DNA of 39,278 nucleotides from a virus (taxonomy: Duplodnaviria > Heunggongvirae > Uroviricota > Caudoviricetes). The notes beneath the pieces are model-generated. The model was not told the origin of the DNA. It made no database searches and worked only from the letters and a program-made list of their open reading frames with translations. Position numbers and translations under genes: made by a program. The stretch is from the IMG/VR virus record IMGVR_UViG_2690316285_000009. One strand, 5' to 3'. Below are positions 12,180-37,981 of the stretch, one piece after another (position 1 is the stretch's first letter; each line of letters opens with the position of its first letter).

Positions 12180-14288
12180 TCACATCCAGGCCATGCTGTG
12201 CGGTATCATCCACATNNNNNNNNNNNNNNNNNCCACATCAATACTGCGCGCCCGCCAGCCTTCAGGGGCCACAAGCTCCACCCGTGCGGCGGTTTTCGCG
12301 GTGGCCTGTCCGCCGTTTTCGTCACTGCTGCCACGCAGTTTCTGCCAGGCCTGCGTCAGCCAGCCCCCCNNNNNNNNNNNNNNNNNNNNNNNNNNNNNNN
12401 NNNNNNNNNNNNNNNNNNNNNNNNNNNNNNNNNNNNNNNNNNNNNNNNNNNNNNNNNNNNNNNNNNNNNNNNNNNNNNNNNNNNNNNNNNNNNNNNNNNN
12501 NNNNNNNNNNNNNNNNNNNNNNNNNNNNNNNNNNNNNNNNNNNNNNNNNNNNNNNNNNNNNNNNNNNNNNNNNNNNNNNNNNNNNNNNNNNNNNNNNNNN
12601 NNNNNNNNNNNNNNNNNNNNNNNNNNNNNNCCGGCACCACGGAACAGCCCGGCAAAACGCCCCAGCCCCATGCGGTTTCCGGCCGCCGTTAGCAGACCAC
12701 CGGCACGGCTCATCATACGACCGAAGAAGCCCTGTTTACCGGCACTCTCCGCCAGTTGCTCACCGGCAGTCACGACGGTCGTGACACCCCGTCCACGTCC
12801 GGGGCCGCGTTTTTTACGGCCGCGCACGGTTTTGCCGTCACCGCTGACCACCACATCCCCGCCACCTGAGGCCAGGCCACCCGCAGGCCAGTTGGTGACC
12901 AGCACGGGCTGAACGGCAGCCGGATTTACCCCGGTAAGGAAATTCAGGAACCGGCCAGCGCGTCCGGGCTGCGTTCCCGGTACAGTGGTCTGCGGTTTGC
13001 GGAAGGGCGACGTCAGCACGGAGGTCATCGCCATGCCATAGCGTAAGGGGGTTGCGCCGAGACGTAATGCCCCCGTCCCCGCAAACCTGAGCACCTTCAG
13101 CGCACGGGAGGCGAGATACATATACATCAGGTACTTTGCGGCGGTCTGCGCACCCTGACCAATACGATCCAGTGCATCGCCATAACCGGCGTCGCGCAGT
13201 GCCTGAAGCGTTTCCCTGACTTTCTGAATGGCCCGGTAAAAGCCGGTTGCAGCGTCTCTGGCATACTCGAATCCCTGATTCAGGGCTGAGGCCGTCTGTG
13301 TGGCCAGCTTATCCTGTAAGCCGCTTTTCTGTGCCGCATCAGCATAATCCAGAAAGCCTTTCAGGCTCTTTTTCAGGCTGTCAAACGGTCCCTTTGCCAT
13401 CACCTCGCGGGCAAATCCGTCCCAGACATCGCCCATCATGGACGTCATTCCCGTCCAGGAATTCATGGCGTTTTTCTGGGCACCTTTTGCCTGTTCGGCC
13501 ATCACCTGAAATAACAGGCGAATGCTGTCCGGTCCCAGTTTTCCTTTCTCGCCTTTCTCACGGATGATCTTCTGGTTTACACCCAGCTTATCGGCCAGCA
13601 ACTGGTAAACGTTAATCCCGTATCCGGTCAGAATATTGGCGTCCGCTGCCTGGATACTCTGGCGGGCAAACATCTGTTTGAGTTGCAGGGACGCACCCTG
13701 TGCATCTGACAGTGACCAGCCGTGATAGCCGCCCTGATCCTGAAGCATGGTAATAAAGCGACGGGCTTCCCTGTCACTCATACCGAACCCGCGACTGGAG
13801 GCGTATTCCTGCATAACCCCCGCCAGCCCCCAGGTGGTGTCTTTGGCGTTCTGTACCGCCCAGGCTTTCACTGCTTCCGTTTTTGCCGTATCGCCATGAT
13901 TAATGGCGTTGAGACGCAGAATATAGTTCTCCATCTCTGCGGCCGGGCGGATAAAGGCTTTATTAAACCCGTAGACCGCAGCCCCTCCCGCCAGCATCCC
14001 GTAAAGGTTGCTTATCCGCCCGATGGTGCCGGTAATGCTGCCCTGAAGGCGGTCAAAATCTGACGTCACCGTGCGGATACTGCCACGAACACCGGCAAGC
14101 GTTCGCTGCATACGGGAGCCGACAAGTTCTGTCTCCTGACCGGCACGACGTGCTGCATTTCCAAGACCACCCAGCCCCGTCCTGCCGGAACGGGAGAATG
14201 CCCCCAGCTCCTGTGACCACTGGCGGGATTTGGCAGAAATATTGCCGAGTAAATCGACAATCAGGGAGGCTTTCAGGTTTTTTGCCAT
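12180..14288 (-). CDS. Tail tape measure protein (interrupted by N-runs at 12216-12232 and 12370-12630)
   Basis: 702-aa Gly/Ala-rich product with long predicted helical N-terminal part and Gly-rich C-terminus; position between chaperone-like gene and N. Confidence 0.75.
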   Translation of the reverse strand: MAKNLKASLIVDLLGNISAKSRQWSQELGAFSRSGRTGLGGLGNAARRAGQETELVGSRMQRTLAGVRGSIRTVTSDFDRLQGSITGTIGRISNLYGMLAGGAAVYGFNKAFIRPAAEMENYILRLNAINHGDTAKTEAVKAWAVQNAKDTTWGLAGVMQEYASSRGFGMSDREARRFITMLQDQGGYHGWSLSDAQGASLQLKQMFARQSIQAADANILTGYGINVYQLLADKLGVNQKIIREKGEKGKLGPDSIRLLFQVMAEQAKGAQKNAMNSWTGMTSMMGDVWDGFAREVMAKGPFDSLKKSLKGFLDYADAAQKSGLQDKLATQTASALNQGFEYARDAATGFYRAIQKVRETLQALRDAGYGDALDRIGQGAQTAAKYLMYMYLASRALKVLRFAGTGALRLGATPLRYGMAMTSVLTSPFRKPQTTVPGTQPGRAGRFLNFLTGVNPAAVQPVLVTNWPAGGLASGGGDVVVSGDGKTVRGRKKRGPGRGRGVTTVVTAGEQLAESAGKQGFFGRMMSRAGGLLTAAGNRMGLGRFAGLFRGAXXXXXXXXXXXXXXXXXXXXXXXXXXXXXXXXXXXXXXXXXXXXXXXXXXXXXXXXXXXXXXXXXXXXXXXXXXXXXXXXXXXXXXXXGGWLTQAWQKLRGSSDENGGQATAKTAARVELVAPEGWRARSIDVXXXXXXMWMIPHSMAWM

Positions 14289-16783: not shown

Positions 16784-17094
16784 CAGGACGTCCCCTTGTC
16801 TGATGCTGCGGGTTTTTCAGTCGCGGGTTTTTCAGTCGCAGGTTTTTCTGCTGCCGCTCCCGCGGGTTTTCCGGCGGCATCAGTCGTTGCAGACGCTGCT
16901 GCCGGNNNNNNNNNNNNNNNNNNNNCCGGTGCTGCTTCAGCCGCTTTTTCCACCACAATGACGTCCCCGTCATTAAGACGGCGGCACCAGAACGGGGTGA
17001 AGGGTTTTTCCTCTCCCTCCTGCGCCAGCGGTTTCATGGTGTCCGGATCGCGGATCAGGCATCCCGGCGCGGGTTTGATAAAAATGGTTGTCAT
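16783..17094 (-). CDS. Small tail-region protein with C-terminal EKPAT tandem repeats (interrupted by N-run 16906-16925)
   Basis: 15-bp tandem DNA repeat at 16810-16855 encoding ..EKPATEKPATEKPA.. Confidence 0.5.
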   Translation of the reverse strand: MTTIFIKPAPGCLIRDPDTMKPLAQEGEEKPFTPFWCRRLNDGDVIVVEKAAEAAPXXXXXXXPAAASATTDAAGKPAGAAAEKPATEKPATEKPAASDKGTS

Positions 17095-30892: not shown

Positions 30893-31218
30893 GCATTCAC
30901 CTCCCGTAATTCCGGTAAAGCCGAAATATGACACCAGTGCGTCACCTGTCCGTCTTCATCTTCAAGGCAGGCTCCGGTTTCTTCATCAACAAAAAAGCCT
31001 TCATACCCCATATGGCCGATGCGCAGCTCCTGACGGTGACCATACTGAACAATCAGCACGACAGCCTCCATATCAGGTGGGAAAGTATCATTCAGTGAAT
31101 GCCAGGGATAACCGCGTAAATCCCCGAAATAAACACCGGTCAGCGTTCCGCCACAGAGCGGCATTCCGGCGGCACACACAAGAGGTTCATCTGATTCAAC
31201 AAATAAGGTCGTTATCAT
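30889..31218 (-). CDS. Hypothetical early protein (109 aa)
   Basis: ORF in the early operon with start/stop overlap to neighbours. Confidence 0.45.
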   Translation of the reverse strand: MITTLFVESDEPLVCAAGMPLCGGTLTGVYFGDLRGYPWHSLNDTFPPDMEAVVLIVQYGHRQELRIGHMGYEGFFVDEETGACLEDEDGQVTHWCHISALPELREVNA

Positions 31219-31766
31219 GGCGTTAACTCCCGTAATACAGCGTCCTCGGCAGTCCGGCGACGGTAATAAACTGCGTGAGCAGAATGTTCAGATATTCCAA
31301 ACTTTTCGCCAATTTCCCGGAATGACAGACGGCGTGGGTAATCGGAATCACGCAGCGCACGTATAAGACGTACATCATCATCAGATATGCGCGTGCCGGG
31401 GCGTAACTCTCCGCACTTTGTTAATCCAGCACCAATCATTCCTGCCCGACATCTGACAGAATCTTTATTACGTCCGAGATATTCTCCCATTTGCTGGCAG
31501 GTCATTGTTCTGGCATTTTTTCGAATAAACTTATCTTCATCAGGTGTAAATCTTGGGTGTTTATATTTCAGTAACTCCGGGTATGAACTGCGCAATACAC
31601 CAGTCCGGTTATATACAGCCCAGACAGTTCTTTTTATTCTGGCAGCAATATCCTTAACCGGGGTGGATGAATAAAGCGCAATCAGCAGCGCATCTTCTTC
31701 AGGTGTCCACGGACGGACATGAGCGGGGGCGCGACCTTTTAGTCCCATGGGTTGTAATTTCATCAT
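31215..31766 (-). CDS. Hypothetical early protein, probably DNA-binding (183 aa)
   Basis: Two segments resembling helix-turn-helix units (..WTPEEDALLIALY.. and ..RLSFREIGEKFGISEHSAHAVYYRR..). Confidence 0.5.
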   Translation of the reverse strand: MMKLQPMGLKGRAPAHVRPWTPEEDALLIALYSSTPVKDIAARIKRTVWAVYNRTGVLRSSYPELLKYKHPRFTPDEDKFIRKNARTMTCQQMGEYLGRNKDSVRCRAGMIGAGLTKCGELRPGTRISDDDVRLIRALRDSDYPRRLSFREIGEKFGISEHSAHAVYYRRRTAEDAVLRELTP

Positions 31767-32963: not shown

Positions 32964-33494
32964 TTATTTATTCAGTCCGGCGTCCTGTTCAAAAGGCTCG
33001 ACATAAAAACTTTCAGCGCCTTTATTCACCTTGATACCGGCAATGCCTTTCACAGCATCCGGCTCCGCCAGGACGGCTTCCTTGTTCACTTCCTCTTTCG
33101 TGCGGATGAAACGCTCAAGCCCCATACGGCGCAGCATTTCAATCACACCTTCCACATCACGGCTGACGCTGCATGATGGCGTTCCCAGCCGCCATGACAC
33201 CGTTCCGGTGGTCAGATTGGCTGTTTTGGTTTTGCCGCCGTTCGTCAGCTCATCACGGTTGGTTTTGCACCAGTCCTGAATCCCTTTAAAAAGCACTTTG
33301 ATTTGCTTTTTAAGATTTTCAATCTGCGGCGTATAACGGGCGGTGATTTCTGCCACTTCGTCATTCATCGCCGTTTCCAGGCGCAGCGCCTCTCGCTGAA
33401 TATCTCCCAGGGTGCGGATATCACGGCTGACTTCTTCCCGGGTCTGCGGTGCCGCCTCGGCTGCGGCCTTTAATTTTGTAACGCGTTTAGCCAT
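32964..33494 (-). CDS. gam: Gam host-nuclease inhibitor (Ku-like DNA-end-binding protein)
   Basis: 176-aa product with the segments RLETAMNDEVAEIT and CKTNRDELTNGGKTKTANLTTGTVSWR that I recognise as matching Mu Gam along its length. Confidence 0.9.
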   Translation of the reverse strand: MAKRVTKLKAAAEAAPQTREEVSRDIRTLGDIQREALRLETAMNDEVAEITARYTPQIENLKKQIKVLFKGIQDWCKTNRDELTNGGKTKTANLTTGTVSWRLGTPSCSVSRDVEGVIEMLRRMGLERFIRTKEEVNKEAVLAEPDAVKGIAGIKVNKGAESFYVEPFEQDAGLNK

Positions 33495-33505: not shown

Positions 33506-33799
33506 TTATTGCAGTGTGCCTGATGCTTTATGCACGCGGTGGCGTTTAATGATGGCATCCGCTCCAAAAGACTGTGCAGATGCCTGAAATTCCGCTGAGA
33601 GAAACTGAATAATTGCAGGACTGTGATACTGGAGAATACTTGCATAAACGTCACAGAGTGACGTCGGCCTGTTATCCGTATCACGTTCTGTTTTCACATC
33701 CACTCCAATCTTTTCATGCACTTCAACACAGTCATTGCCTGCCAACTTTTCGTCATGCGAAACATGATTAAATTCAAAAATAACGCGTACTTTGCTCAT
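33506..33799 (-). CDS. Small early protein, paralog B of a tandem pair (start at internal ATG, MSKVRVIFEF..)
   Basis: N-terminus and the ..FLSAEFQAS.. block parallel the adjacent paralog A. Confidence 0.5.
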   Translation of the reverse strand: MSKVRVIFEFNHVSHDEKLAGNDCVEVHEKIGVDVKTERDTDNRPTSLCDVYASILQYHSPAIIQFLSAEFQASAQSFGADAIIKRHRVHKASGTLQ

Positions 33800-33803
33800 G
33801 GAA

Positions 33804-34076
33804 TTACCCCTGTTGATTAAATTCATTACCGTTAATAACCCCGGAAGCCATGCCTCTGTCTTTCATGAATGCACTGGCTTTCATTGCCACAAACTCTGCG
33901 AAGTTTCTGCTTTCTGCCAGCATAACCACCCCAAAAATCATGGCGGGTCCATTATCTTTCTTCTTTATTCCGGTTGAACGTATATCCAGACTTACCCCTC
34001 TGTGCGTGCTGCCATCAGAGTTTTTGCAGATAACATCTTCCTTGTATTCGAAAATAATGCGTACGACTTTACTCAT
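33804..34076 (-). CDS. Small early protein, paralog A of a tandem pair (MSKVVRIIFEY..)
   Basis: Shares N-terminal MSKV.R.IFE(F/Y) and the ..FVAMKASAF.. block with paralog B. Confidence 0.5.
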   Translation of the reverse strand: MSKVVRIIFEYKEDVICKNSDGSTHRGVSLDIRSTGIKKKDNGPAMIFGVVMLAESRNFAEFVAMKASAFMKDRGMASGVINGNEFNQQG

Positions 34077-34354
34077 CCTCTGGTCCTCGTTCTGTTTGGA
34101 TAACTGACCCGGCGTCTAACCTCACGGCAGAACCGAATCATGGCATTAAAGGCTTCTTCCTCCGTCACCGCTTCCGGTATCCCCGGAACCAGTAACTGCT
34201 CCTGTTCATCACGTCCATGACGCGCCATAACCTCAATCACATGCCGTACCGTGGCAGGCTTTCCGGCAACTATCGGCAATGCACCTTCCGGCAGGACGTA
34301 ACCAAACTCAATAAGACCACTCGACCACGCCCATGCAATGAGATTTTTTTTCAC
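34073..34354 (-). CDS. Hypothetical early protein (93 aa)
   Basis: ORF with start/stop overlaps in the early operon. Confidence 0.45.
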   Translation of the reverse strand: MKKNLIAWAWSSGLIEFGYVLPEGALPIVAGKPATVRHVIEVMARHGRDEQEQLLVPGIPEAVTEEEAFNAMIRFCREVRRRVSYPNRTRTRG

Positions 34355-34355
34355 C

Positions 34356-34622
34356 TCACACCTCCCAGTAAACCGTGCAGCCGCTGATGCGGGTGGCCTT
34401 CACACGGCGGCGCAGGCCGTTGGTCTGTATGGTGATTTCAATTTCACCGGTTCCCTGCACGTTGCCTACCGGCGGCGTGGTTTTCAGTGCAAAACGTTGC
34501 GGATAGCGCTTACTGCGTTCCAGTACCGCACCGGCAAGTTCGGTCAGACGGCGCGCGCTGTTCAGGGAGTCGAATAAATTCATTTTGTTACCGCAGGATT
34601 GCATATTCATATAACACCTCAT
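34356..34622 (-). CDS. Hypothetical early protein (88 aa)
   Basis: ORF in the early operon downstream of B. Confidence 0.45.
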   Translation of the reverse strand: MRCYMNMQSCGNKMNLFDSLNSARRLTELAGAVLERSKRYPQRFALKTTPPVGNVQGTGEIEITIQTNGLRRRVKATRISGCTVYWEV

Positions 34623-34886
34623 TTAGCTGACTTGTTTCGCACCAACAGAACGGCATATTCCGCTGTAAACTTCTGTCGCACCTTCGCGATCAAGTCCGGC
34701 AGATATCACCATTCGTGTGCGGTCATTAAATTCAAAAAGTAAATCGCCACATTCTTTATTTTCGGCCAGTGAAATCACCTTCACGTTATCGAAATTAACC
34801 AGGTAAAAGCGTCCGTAAATATCAGGAATATTAAATNNNNNNNNNNNNNNNNNNNNNNNNNNNNNNNNNNNNNCCGCCATAATCAC
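34623..34886 (-). CDS. Hypothetical early protein (interrupted by N-run 34837-34873)
   Basis: ORF immediately downstream of B; N-terminal part unreadable. Confidence 0.4.
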   Translation of the reverse strand: MIMAXXXXXXXXXXXXXFNIPDIYGRFYLVNFDNVKVISLAENKECGDLLFEFNDRTRMVISAGLDREGATEVYSGICRSVGAKQVS

Positions 34887-35815
34887 ACCTGTGAGAGTAA
34901 TTCAGGGTTGGTATAAACCTCTTTAAAGGCCGCATTAATATGTTTTTCTGTCAGCGCCGCGCCTTCACCGCTGGCGGTGAGCCACGCCTGGTTAAGCGTA
35001 TGTGTCAGAACGCGTAACGCTCCCGGCTTTTCAGCGATAGCCTGCATGACGGCCAGCTCGGCCTCACCACTGATCCCCCACGCCATGGCAATGGCCAGCA
35101 CATCCGCCTTTTTGGCCTTGCGAAGTTGTTTTGTACGGGCAAGACGGCTGAACAGGCGCGATAAATCATCAAAGGCGCGGCGTCCACCTTTAAACAATCC
35201 GCGCGGGTTACCAATAAGCACCATCCCGATCCCCGTGGCGTCCTGAATTGCCCGGAGTTGCTCCAGACCGTCAATACCAAGATGATCCGCCTCATCCACA
35301 ATCACCAGTCCACGCGTTCCCATCAGGCGACGGCGGATGGCGCGGGATAATGCCCCTTTGTTCGCGCGGGTGTAATCAATCCCCAGCGCATCGGCCAGCT
35401 CCAGCAGACACTCCGTGACGCTGGAGTGCGCGGGTGACAGGGTGATCATCCAGGTGTTTGGTTGCTCCTGGCAGTAATTACGGGCAGTGGCCGTTTTACC
35501 CACACCCGGTACGCCCACAATAACGTTAATACAGCCCATCAGGCGAACCGCCTGAAACAGTGCGCGCAGCTCCTGGACTGTCTGAGTTTCCACAAACTGC
35601 GGCGGTTCCGGCAGTGCGCTTTGTTTATTCCAGTTCTCATACCAGGAGCGCAGGGAAGCAGCCACAGCGGCGTTATCGCCTTTATATTTCCCCTTGCGGA
35701 AAGCCGATAATGTGCCGTCGGAAATTCCCGCCTCTCTGGCGATGGCATACTGCGTCAGCACGCCGCCATCAATAAGTTCATCAATGGTCTTGATTACATC
35801 GTTTATATCGGTCAT
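34883..35815 (-). CDS. B: MuB-like AAA+ ATPase transposition target-DNA activator
   Basis: Walker A GVPGVGKT, Walker B-like VIVDEADHL, N-terminal helix-turn-helix; matches Mu B along its length; GAGGT Shine-Dalgarno upstream. Confidence 0.9.
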   Translation of the reverse strand: MTDINDVIKTIDELIDGGVLTQYAIAREAGISDGTLSAFRKGKYKGDNAAVAASLRSWYENWNKQSALPEPPQFVETQTVQELRALFQAVRLMGCINVIVGVPGVGKTATARNYCQEQPNTWMITLSPAHSSVTECLLELADALGIDYTRANKGALSRAIRRRLMGTRGLVIVDEADHLGIDGLEQLRAIQDATGIGMVLIGNPRGLFKGGRRAFDDLSRLFSRLARTKQLRKAKKADVLAIAMAWGISGEAELAVMQAIAEKPGALRVLTHTLNQAWLTASGEGAALTEKHINAAFKEVYTNPELLSQV

Positions 35816-35890: not shown

Positions 35891-37981
35891 TCAGGCCAGA
35901 GGGTCATTTTCTTTTAATTTCGCTTCAAGCAGCTGCAATCCCCGCTGGAAATTACGCTCGTATTCTTCATCAGGTTCATCGTCAGCGACCGGTTGCTGAA
36001 CGATCACCGTATTACCCACAGGGCGGTATATATTTTCCAGCCACGGCTCCTGTGGCTTGTGCTCCAGCACGTTGACAATCTCATCCTCGGCATCACGGAT
36101 TTTTTCCTCTGCGCGTTTACGCATGCCTTTAAGGCGCTGCTGCTGTTTGTGGTATTCCGCGCTGACCGGGAAGGCTTCGCGTTTATTGCCGTCCCATACC
36201 GCCTCGCAAATCACGCTGCCATCCAGGCGACGTACGGTAATTCGTTCGGCATCATGAATGTCATAGCTGATAAGCACCTTACGACCATGCTCGTCACGCA
36301 GCTCGGGCGCGTAGTAAATATTATTCAGCCAGCGTATTTCACAGCGTCTTACAGGGCGTTCCACCATCGGCCGGAACATATCCCGCAGCTCAACATCGGA
36401 CAGCCATTCAATTTCCGTGTCCTCTTCCGCCAGGCGTTTTTTTCTGAACTCCGCCGGGCTGTAATGCTTGCCGTTCGGCTTCACCGGTAATTCATCGTGC
36501 GGCCGGTTGTTGTACCACTCAACACCATCACGAATGGCATCAATCAGTTCAGCCCAGGACGGTGAATCACGCATCGCTGACTGCTGCCGGGCGTTCAGCC
36601 GTTTGCCCTGTTGCAGGGCAGTAAATGCCGAGCGTAAATCGCGGTTGGTTTTGCGTAACGTCTCGCGATCTGCACCTTTCCCGAAATAGGTGCGGTATTT
36701 ACGGGCTATGCGCATCGGTAATGTGCGGTTAAGCCGTTCGATAATGCCTCGTCCCTGCGGATTACCGGCAATCCCGGTCGGGTGATTAATCCCCAGTCGC
36801 GGCAGTATCCCCACAACCTCCTTATCCAGGATGTCGGCGGTTTCCCCGGAGCCGTTATCCGAGTAATACAGAAACGGTTTGCCGTGATGGCGAATGCCGT
36901 GCTGTATGGCACCGGCTACGGCGAAAACATTTTCAGCCAGGTCAAGGCTCCAGCCCACCACAAAGCGCGTGCCACCGTCGATAACAAAGGTCACTTCCGG
37001 TGCAAATGGCCGACCGTGAACCGGGTGTGCGCATTTCAGCTTCATGCCGTGACCGTCACCAATCCAGACATAATTCACCGGCATTTTTGACCAGTCGCGG
37101 CGCGTGAATCCCTCAAGCTGGCGGTATTCACTGCCGGTCACCCGGCCTTTTTGTTTCACCACTTCCGGCAGTTTCTTCATTGCGCGGCGAATGGTGTCAT
37201 AAGACGGCATGATATCGAGCATATAAGGCTCATCAGCGTGCCGGTGCTGCCATTCAGCGACAAAATCCTCGTAAGCCTCGGTCATTGGTCGGCCGTTTGA
37301 CTGGCGATACTGCGCCAGAAATTCGGGCAGCCAGTTAATATCTTCGGCTTTTATTTCCTGGCGCTTACCCGGTGCCAGTAAAAGCAGGCGTTCAGCGGCG
37401 TTCTGCGCCTTGTTAAAGGCCGCAATCCAGCGTTTCAGCGTGATTTCACTTAACGCGCGGCTGTTTCCCTTTTTGGCGTTCGCCGTCTCAACCATTGCCA
37501 CAATGCGCTCGTCCAGCTGCGAACGTGCCAGGTTGTCAACGATAAACCGGATAGCCTTCGCACAGCTGAAACCAGGTTGTTGCGCGACTTTCAGAACTTC
37601 GCTGACGATCGCGATTCGTGCATCAGCCACCTGGCGCTGGTTTTCAGTCAGGGCATTAAGGCGTTCGACCATCAGTTGTGGTGATCCGCGATATGCCTCC
37701 ACCGCATCAACCACGGCAGGCGAGCGTCTGGCCTTTGTCACCACTGGAGCCGGTGATTCATCGACTTTTTGAGTCATCAGTTGCAGGGCGTAGCGTTCAC
37801 GTAATGCCTGCTGCGTCACTTCAGGTAAACAGTCGATGCTGTATTCAGTTGCTTTAGAGCCTGAGCGACGACGGGAACAACAGCTTTTCCCTTGTACGTA
37901 ACGTTGTAATGCCTGGCGAATACCTTTTGTTGTAGCAGGCATTCCGGGCGCACCAATCAGTTCTTTTGCAATGACATACAT
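35891..37981 (-). CDS. A: MuA-like DDE transposase
   Basis: 696-aa product with the ..WIGDGHGMKLK.. core region typical of the Mu transposase family; start abuts the ner stop codon. Confidence 0.9.
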   Translation of the reverse strand: MYVIAKELIGAPGMPATTKGIRQALQRYVQGKSCCSRRRSGSKATEYSIDCLPEVTQQALRERYALQLMTQKVDESPAPVVTKARRSPAVVDAVEAYRGSPQLMVERLNALTENQRQVADARIAIVSEVLKVAQQPGFSCAKAIRFIVDNLARSQLDERIVAMVETANAKKGNSRALSEITLKRWIAAFNKAQNAAERLLLLAPGKRQEIKAEDINWLPEFLAQYRQSNGRPMTEAYEDFVAEWQHRHADEPYMLDIMPSYDTIRRAMKKLPEVVKQKGRVTGSEYRQLEGFTRRDWSKMPVNYVWIGDGHGMKLKCAHPVHGRPFAPEVTFVIDGGTRFVVGWSLDLAENVFAVAGAIQHGIRHHGKPFLYYSDNGSGETADILDKEVVGILPRLGINHPTGIAGNPQGRGIIERLNRTLPMRIARKYRTYFGKGADRETLRKTNRDLRSAFTALQQGKRLNARQQSAMRDSPSWAELIDAIRDGVEWYNNRPHDELPVKPNGKHYSPAEFRKKRLAEEDTEIEWLSDVELRDMFRPMVERPVRRCEIRWLNNIYYAPELRDEHGRKVLISYDIHDAERITVRRLDGSVICEAVWDGNKREAFPVSAEYHKQQQRLKGMRKRAEEKIRDAEDEIVNVLEHKPQEPWLENIYRPVGNTVIVQQPVADDEPDEEYERNFQRGLQLLEAKLKENDPLA

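Follow-up and report, generated by a model that had tools for sequence, protein, structure and literature searches.

The closest known counterpart of the genes reported here is gene E6 of phage Mu (Mup07, orf63; NP_050611.1, NC_000929 4784..5047), recently shown, under the name gnarl2, to remodel O-antigen in an apparently non-enzymatic way (Silas et al., Nat Commun 2025, PMC12373910; preprint 10.1101/2023.04.06.535777). We reached this identity by a full-text search for the Mu locus tag Mup07, and the coordinates given for gnarl2 are those of the Mu gene aligned here; in the literature on the Mu semi-essential region we found nothing on E6. When gnarl2 is expressed in the wild E. coli strains ECOR1 and ECOR22, O-antigen bands are shifted downwards and T5 infection rises 10^5–10^6-fold, and disruption of O-antigen genes by transposon has the same effect (PMC12373910). 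The gnarl2 effect is strain-specific, AP-MS gave no clear target, and Gnarl3, a protein unrelated to gnarl2, binds GalU (PMC12373910). The authors propose non-enzymatic interference with O-antigen biosynthesis, from which the phage would gain superinfection exclusion or avoid re-adsorption to debris (PMC12373910).

The window analysed here, the whole 39,278-nucleotide stretch of IMG/VR record IMGVR_UViG_2690316285_000009, contains on its minus strand the early genes of a Mu-like prophage of the Sp18 type from E. coli, arranged as an operon. All genes and ribosome-binding sites of the window given below lie on that strand. The order is transposase A (35891–37981), B (34883–35815), a small ORF downstream of B (34623–34886), a Kil-like gene (34356–34622, phrog_2679), a 93-aa gene (34073–34354, phrog_1518), the two genes under study, gam (32964–33494), which encodes a Mu Gam-like DNA-end-binding protein (PF07352, E 5.5e-42), and a Gp11-like gene. 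The pair consists of a 90-aa gene, hereafter P90 (33804–34076; phrog_4107, E 1.7e-54), and a 97-aa gene immediately upstream of gam, hereafter P97 (33506–33799; phrog_2230, E 1.8e-38), each an open reading frame and a RefSeq CDS. The initial annotation, which had singled them out as tandem small early genes next to gam, was right on this point.

The two genes are tightly packed. The P90 start codon overlaps the stop codon of the 93-aa gene in an ATGA (34073–34076), behind a ribosome-binding site, GAGGA, read from the sequence at 34084–34088; P90 ends with TAA at 33804–33806, P97 starts 4 nt past that stop, and a P97 ribosome-binding site, AGGGG (33807–33811), can be read inside the last P90 codons. 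RefSeq has exactly two genes here. A longer P97 reading frame, starting at 33826, is unlikely, since the RefSeq gene is 294 nt long and AGGGG stands 7 nt before the ATG of MSKV. Promoter- and terminator-like sites between 32800 and 34700 show no excess over shuffled sequence, and an Rfam scan of the P90/P97 region gave no match, so both genes are apparently read within the early transcript. The region is matched at 100% identity in E. coli chromosomes; of 5426 complete genomes of that species, 226 carry it, with Sp18 of O157:H7 Sakai among the carriers. Together with the ribosome-binding sites, the ATGA coupling, the RefSeq annotation and dN/dS values of 0.25–0.7, this spread shows that P90 and P97 are real early genes, coupled in translation and apparently transcribed together. 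In some genomes the region is present in up to four copies, the chromosome harbouring more than one Mu-like prophage, and a plasmid record also has a copy.

Several features of the surrounding genes deserve mention. The window contains four N-runs (12216–12232, 12370–12630, 16906–16925 and 34837–34873), the last of which breaks the small ORF downstream of B, leaving its product not fully readable; an intact 73-aa version in locus L001 (5223–5444) belongs to phrog_3375. The 93-aa gene carries the motif AWASGLIEFG, gave no Pfam, NCBIfam or PADLOC match, and precedes the gp7-like gene (gp7 being the Mu E6 product) in several relatives, being absent or replaced in L036; the label ‘host nuclease inhibitor’ attached to its family, phrog_1518, may have been transferred from the neighbouring gam. 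Downstream of gam, at 31215–31766 on the minus strand, lies a gene for a SANT/Myb-like HTH protein (phrog_323), a relative of Mu gp9. As gp9 lies upstream of gam in Mu, the order of the early region is rearranged relative to that phage.

Similarity between P90 and P97 is plain at one end and faint elsewhere. The first 11 codons of P90 (MSKVVRIIFEY, 34044–34076) and the first 10 of P97 (MSKVRVIFEF, 33770–33799) are identical at 8 of the 10 positions that align once a single residue is gapped, which bears out the common N-terminus noted in the initial annotation; at the DNA level, a local alignment of the first 31 nt of P90 and 28 nt of P97 has 25 of 28 positions identical and a 3-nt gap. These segments correspond to the conserved N-terminal β-strand (consensus MAKVIFEF in the wider family described below), which in P97 is also the 5′ boundary of a variable cassette. 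BLASTP aligns the two proteins over 76 aa at 22% identity (21.6 bits, E 6e-4), and their full-length Smith–Waterman score is equalled by 1 of 5000 shuffles. Without the first 10–11 residues, the score is equalled by 216 of 5000 (p~0.04), and direct similarity past the N-terminus is marginal. The second conserved block that had been claimed exists in weak form (GVSLDI against IGVDVK, and DNGP against DNRP). Between the two narrow families, whose profiles are shallow, hhalign reports a probability of 85% (E 6e-6) for an alignment of 42 columns at the N-terminus; among 5.8 billion proteins, the homologues of each gene form a narrow set, nearly all of it from E. coli, with identities of 57% or more for P90 and 72% or more for P97. 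The PHROG profile of either gene does not match the other gene. Taken pairwise, the result comes close to the absence of similarity beyond the first residues that was to speak against the duplication, a picture that the family profiles overturn. As the direct signal past the N-terminus is marginal, whole-length homology is secured through the wider family only.

A repeat scan of the P90/P97 region found, beyond chance, one repeat only: an exact 12-nt direct repeat (TGATTAAATTCA on the plus strand) at 33765–33776 and 33814–33825, a length reached in 42 of 3000 shuffles. It encodes EFN both in the P90 C-terminus (NEFNQQG) and at P97 residues 9–11, and is possibly a remnant of the joint that made the pair.

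The wider family emerged from the small ORFs upstream of gam in 160 Gam-anchored Mu-like loci from IMG/VR and GTDB species genomes. Proteins of 80–100 aa starting with MAKVI(I/F)E occur there in Edwardsiella, Kluyvera, Dickeya, an enterobacterium and an IMG/VR contig, and Mu carries the same kind of gene in gp7/E6, which starts MAKVIIEIKN. By plain BLASTP, the Edwardsiella protein matches P97 (E 6e-5), the Kluyvera protein (3e-4) and P90 (2e-3), and a profile of the MAKVI(I/F)E-type sequences recovered relatives of every seed. The family is small: a HMMER scan of 1.84 billion representatives returned only 33 proteins at E<=0.001, 32 of them 49–100 aa long. The remaining one, P0114 (710 aa, E 1.5e-16), is cysteine-rich with 13 short repeats and was discarded as a low-complexity false positive. 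An alignment of 36 sequences is coherent, with an N-terminal strand, a variable hairpin, a helix start of the form ‘GP.D..A.I....P.II’ and a glycine after the helix. When both the P90 and the P97 group are left out of the family profile, P90 still obtains 23.3 bits and P97 56.9 bits, and 0 of 2000 shuffles reach either score (best 10.8 for P90 and 11.7 for P97). Part of P90's 23-bit score stems from the N-terminal strand; stripped of its N-terminus, P90 is still related to P0119 and P0127 at z 7.5–7.6.

Profile–profile comparison by hhalign links the groups stepwise: P97 to P97-like proteins (99.2%) and to the D108-gp7 group (97.5%, E 8e-12), the D108-gp7 group to the Mu gp7 group (94.0%), and Mu gp7 to the group gX (97.1%). 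P90 is linked to the P97-like group at 87.5% over 69 of its 90 columns and to P97 at 83.9%, so that its chain to Gnarl2 is one step longer than that of P97, at 84–88% probability. Mu gp7 itself matches the PHROG of P97, phrog_2230, at E 0.009. Direct comparison adds nothing to these links: neither P90 nor P97 matches Mu gp7 by BLASTP, and against the Mu gp7 group hhalign gives an insignificant 0.4% for P97 and 3.6% for P90. The link to Mu gp7 (Gnarl2) is therefore transitive, through profile steps, and identity to it is below 20%. The operon position between B/kil and gam is common to Mu gp7, D108 gp7, the loci L083, L084, L095, L098, L163 and L166, and P90/P97, which at 90 and 97 aa compare with Gnarl proteins of 40–90 aa. 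Neither P90 nor P97 matches an entry of Pfam, NCBIfam or PADLOC, a Pfam scan of the 36 family members gave only scattered single matches at E>0.01, and a PDB sequence profile search returned nothing below E 0.067.

On these sequence comparisons, membership of P97 in the Gnarl2/Mu-gp7 family can be regarded as secure, and that of P90, an unusually divergent and basic member (pI 9.25, in a family otherwise mostly acidic or neutral), as probable; phrog_10252, phrog_2230, phrog_4107 and the D108 gene would then form one family. Most members end in histidine (..KH, ..TH, ..IH or ..CH; for example L002:4784-5047 and L169:1533-1802), and P90 (..QQG) and P97 (..TLQ) do not.

AlphaFold2 predicts one topology for both proteins, a long β-hairpin followed by a helix of about 30 residues, although the input alignments overlap and the two models are not independent. 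In P97 (pLDDT 80), the strands span residues 4–18 and 25–39 and the helix 48–77; in P90 (pLDDT 82.9), the strands span residues 6–18 and 24–35 and the helix 44–73. Nothing below E 0.07 came from Foldseek when both models were compared with the PDB and the P97 model with BFVD, and the top matches (pore-toxin hairpins and sheet-plus-helix platforms) are generic and not interpretable. Each protein is predicted to be small and soluble, with a long N-terminal β-hairpin packed against a single helix of about 30 residues and a disordered tail, and with no enzymatic features. Membership in one family and one predicted fold support the paralogy proposed in the initial annotation.

Between related prophages, the pair changes far more than its surroundings. 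With gam 93–100% identical, P90 alleles are about 80% identical and the two P97 allele types, P97 and P97b, 57%. At the nucleotide level, identity is 96–100% in kil, the 93-aa gene and gam, 72–86% in parts of P90, and 48–78% exactly from the conserved 5′ end of P97 to the start of gam; it falls from 86–98% to about 50% just downstream of P97 codons 1–10, and gam (32964–33494) forms the 3′ boundary of the variable cassette in the identity profile. All combinations of P90 and P97 alleles are seen, which makes obligate co-evolution of the two unlikely. The P97 type occurs in 206 complete E. coli genomes and the P97b type in 32. Strain names rule out a simple link between allele and O-serogroup, the P97 type being present in O157, O26, O103, O111 and O145 strains and P97b also in an O157:H7 strain. 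Variation is concentrated in the hairpin tip, the second strand, and the distal helix and tail, in contrast to a conserved first strand and proximal helix.

Estimates of dN/dS are 0.25–0.35 for P90 and 0.26–0.74 for P97 (from tens of substitutions for divergent alleles), compared with 0.01–0.16 for gam, 0.06–0.18 for kil and 0.09–0.19 for the 93-aa gene, the non-synonymous rate of the pair being about three times that of its neighbours. These rates indicate that P90 and P97 are under purifying but relaxed selection (dN/dS about 0.3 as opposed to about 0.1). Positive selection at the level of the gene was rejected, as dN/dS is below 1 throughout. Because dS between P97 and P97b is about 1, whereas it is 0.1–0.2 in gam, the large differences are those of old alleles moved by recombination, as opposed to positive selection acting in place. 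The diversification seen in the initial annotation therefore holds in so far as non-synonymous change is faster here, whereas the dN/dS range of 0.25–0.7 and the recombined nature of the biggest differences count against a stronger version. The identity profiles mark the P90/P97 locus as a recombination hot spot, at which alleles are exchanged as cassettes between related prophages. Some E. coli strains carry damaged versions (P0030, P0052, P0061, P0063 and P0039), so the genes are dispensable in lysogens; P0030 is a deletion fusion of P90 residues 1–49 to P97 residues 79–97, joined at a common FG, and others are frameshifted.

The distribution of the family bears on how the pair arose. In the Gam-anchored sample, two family members are present in 38 of 40 E. 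coli-type loci; among the 117 other loci, 6 have one member and none has two (E<=0.01). L163, L164, L166 and L167 have a single gp7-like copy at the same site. The closest outside relatives of both P90 and P97 (P0119, P0123, P0127 and P0132) are single genes between kil and gam or, in one lineage, between kil and a DUF3164 gene; a phrog_1518-like 90-aa gene precedes P0127 and P0132, and not P0119 and P0123. P97 is closer to these single-copy genes (z 13–17 to P0127, P0132, P0123 and P0119) than to P90 (z 6), so the copies of the tandem pair are not each other's closest relatives; P90 is about equidistant from P97 and from P0119/P0127. Such distances suit an old duplication in which P90 diverged at an accelerated pace, and equally an insertion. 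Candidate second tandem pairs in L054 and L092 did not hold up against the family profile (6.9 bits for L054a, about 0 bits for L092a and L092b). Since the common nearest relatives of P90 and P97 are single-copy, the second copy appears to have arisen in the E. coli lineage, and the comparison identifies P90 as an extra copy specific to that lineage.

The simplest account of these sequences is that P90 was gained by tandem duplication and that this upstream copy then diverged fast: the ancestral state would have been one gp7-like gene just upstream of gam, and the Sp18-type lineage of E. coli prophages would have added P90 to it. The old tandem duplication proposed in the initial annotation agrees with the single-copy outgroups and is a probable origin. 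Since the locus swaps alleles as cassettes, P90 may instead be a divergent allele of the family that recombination between Mu-like phages, illegitimate or guided by short homology, placed beside the copy already there. The sharp cassette boundaries at the conserved 5′ end and at gam, the dS contrast between P97b and gam, the free re-assortment of P90 and P97 alleles, the distance of P90 from P97, as great as that from single-copy genes of other genera, and the E. coli-type locus L013, in which a P97b-type gene stands alone straight after the upstream gene, all fit such an insertion. We nevertheless consider it a tentative and rather unlikely reading, as searches of 5.8 billion proteins and of 1.84 billion representatives returned P90-type genes from the two-copy E. 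coli lineage only, and the nearest outgroup relatives of P90 (P0119 and P0127) are those of P97. A yet more sceptical reading would deny homology altogether, attributing the N-terminal motif to demands of translation initiation or coupling and the rest to chance likeness. MSK and MAK starts are common among expressed genes, 4% of shuffles equal the pairwise score without the first 10–11 residues, and the PHROG profile of one gene misses the other. Against this stand the z of 7.5–7.6 that P90 retains without its N-terminus, the 69 of 90 columns aligned by hhalign between P90 and the P97-like group, the leave-out profile score of P90 at more than twice the shuffle maximum, the same order and lengths of predicted secondary structure in both proteins, and the same genomic position, and we regard mere coincidence as very improbable.

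Of the functions that can be considered for P90 and P97, alteration of O-antigen in the manner of Gnarl2 is the most likely by analogy, because the family's single functional observation is the effect of Mu E6 on O-antigen and T5. After induction or infection, each protein would bind a host factor of O-antigen or LPS biosynthesis and the O-antigen would change, leading to superinfection exclusion or preventing re-adsorption to debris. The host takeover or counter-defence role suggested at the outset gains real support from the founding member, gnarl2, which alters O-antigen and sensitises wild E. coli to T5, and would have to carry over to P90 and P97 across an identity below 20%. At that distance, bridged by transitive links, function often changes, and one or both proteins, while homologous to the Mu gp7 family, may have another host target, unconnected with O-antigen, such as a defence protein inside the cell or a factor of cell division or DNA metabolism. 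P90 is basic in a mostly acidic or neutral family, the variable hairpin tip and distal helix are plausible binding surfaces, the alleles do not track O-serogroup, and neighbouring genes such as gam and kil act on cytoplasmic targets. The sole experiment on any family member points the other way, and synteny and fold are conserved across the family; a different target is possible, in our judgement, but the less probable outcome. The explanation that we favour, to which as a whole we give about even odds, is that P90 and P97 are real paralogues in the Gnarl2 family with a putative function in O-antigen alteration and a presumed origin by duplication.

A bolder extension of this explanation, which we put forward as speculative and improbable, is that the family acts as a specificity cassette open to exchange. 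Its scaffold would consist of the conserved N-terminal strand and proximal helix, possibly also a dimer interface through which P90 and P97 form homo- or heterodimers, and recognition of variable host proteins of O-antigen or LPS biosynthesis would fall to the hypervariable hairpin tip and distal helix. If so, a prophage with two diverged copies could remodel the surface of more host strains, and the allele series of Mu, D108, P90, P97 and P97b would offer a direct handle on the target of Gnarl2. Under the favoured explanation itself, three PHROGs are united with a gene whose phenotype is known, and two very different copies are carried by a lineage that is common in Shiga-toxin-producing E. 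coli (Sp18 of O157 Sakai and its relatives). This provides a natural panel of variants for finding the target of Gnarl2 and the determinants of its specificity, and suggests that pathogenic E. coli may owe part of their surface-antigen make-up and of their sensitivity to phages to Mu-like prophages. Should the function differ from that of Gnarl2, P90 and P97 would simply add to the uncharacterised early genes.

Compared with known systems, P90 and P97 most resemble Mu gp7/Gnarl2 (phrog_10252), likewise a small early accessory protein (87 aa) encoded in the interval from B/kil to gam, with the N-terminal strand motif MAKVIIEI and the same hairpin–loop–helix alignment pattern; P97 is linked to it by profile–profile steps of at least 94%. 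As opposed to the pair described here, Mu gp7 is a single copy that does not adjoin gam, with gp8 and gp9 intervening, and it has no direct pairwise similarity to either protein; the O-antigen/T5 phenotype is that of the Mu protein only (PMC12373910). The bridge between Mu gp7 and P97 is formed by D108 gp7 (ACV50266.1) and its relatives P0118, P0124 and P0117. Similar to P97, D108 gp7 is an allele replacement at an otherwise conserved locus: the gene-7 products of Mu and D108 are less than 50% identical according to the SfMu paper (PMC4406740), and tblastn finds no similarity between them. Unlike P90 and P97, D108 gp7 is single-copy, acidic and ends in histidine. The closest relatives outside E. 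coli are P0119, P0123, P0127, P0132 and the Edwardsiella protein L084/P0122 (z 7–17), which share the order kil, phrog_1518-like gene, gp7-like gene and gam where the 90-aa gene is present, and differ in having one copy only; in L164/L165 (3303–3941), a DUF3164 protein occupies the slot of gam after the gp7-like gene. Gnarl1, Gnarl3 and Iap of phage D3, which blocks O-antigen polymerase, are also small non-enzymatic phage proteins that change O-antigen (PMC12373910); they come from unrelated phages, and the likeness is an analogy of mechanism only. Beside these systems, P90 and P97 are best described as new and highly diverged members of the Gnarl2 family, forming a lineage-specific pair rather than a new kind of system.
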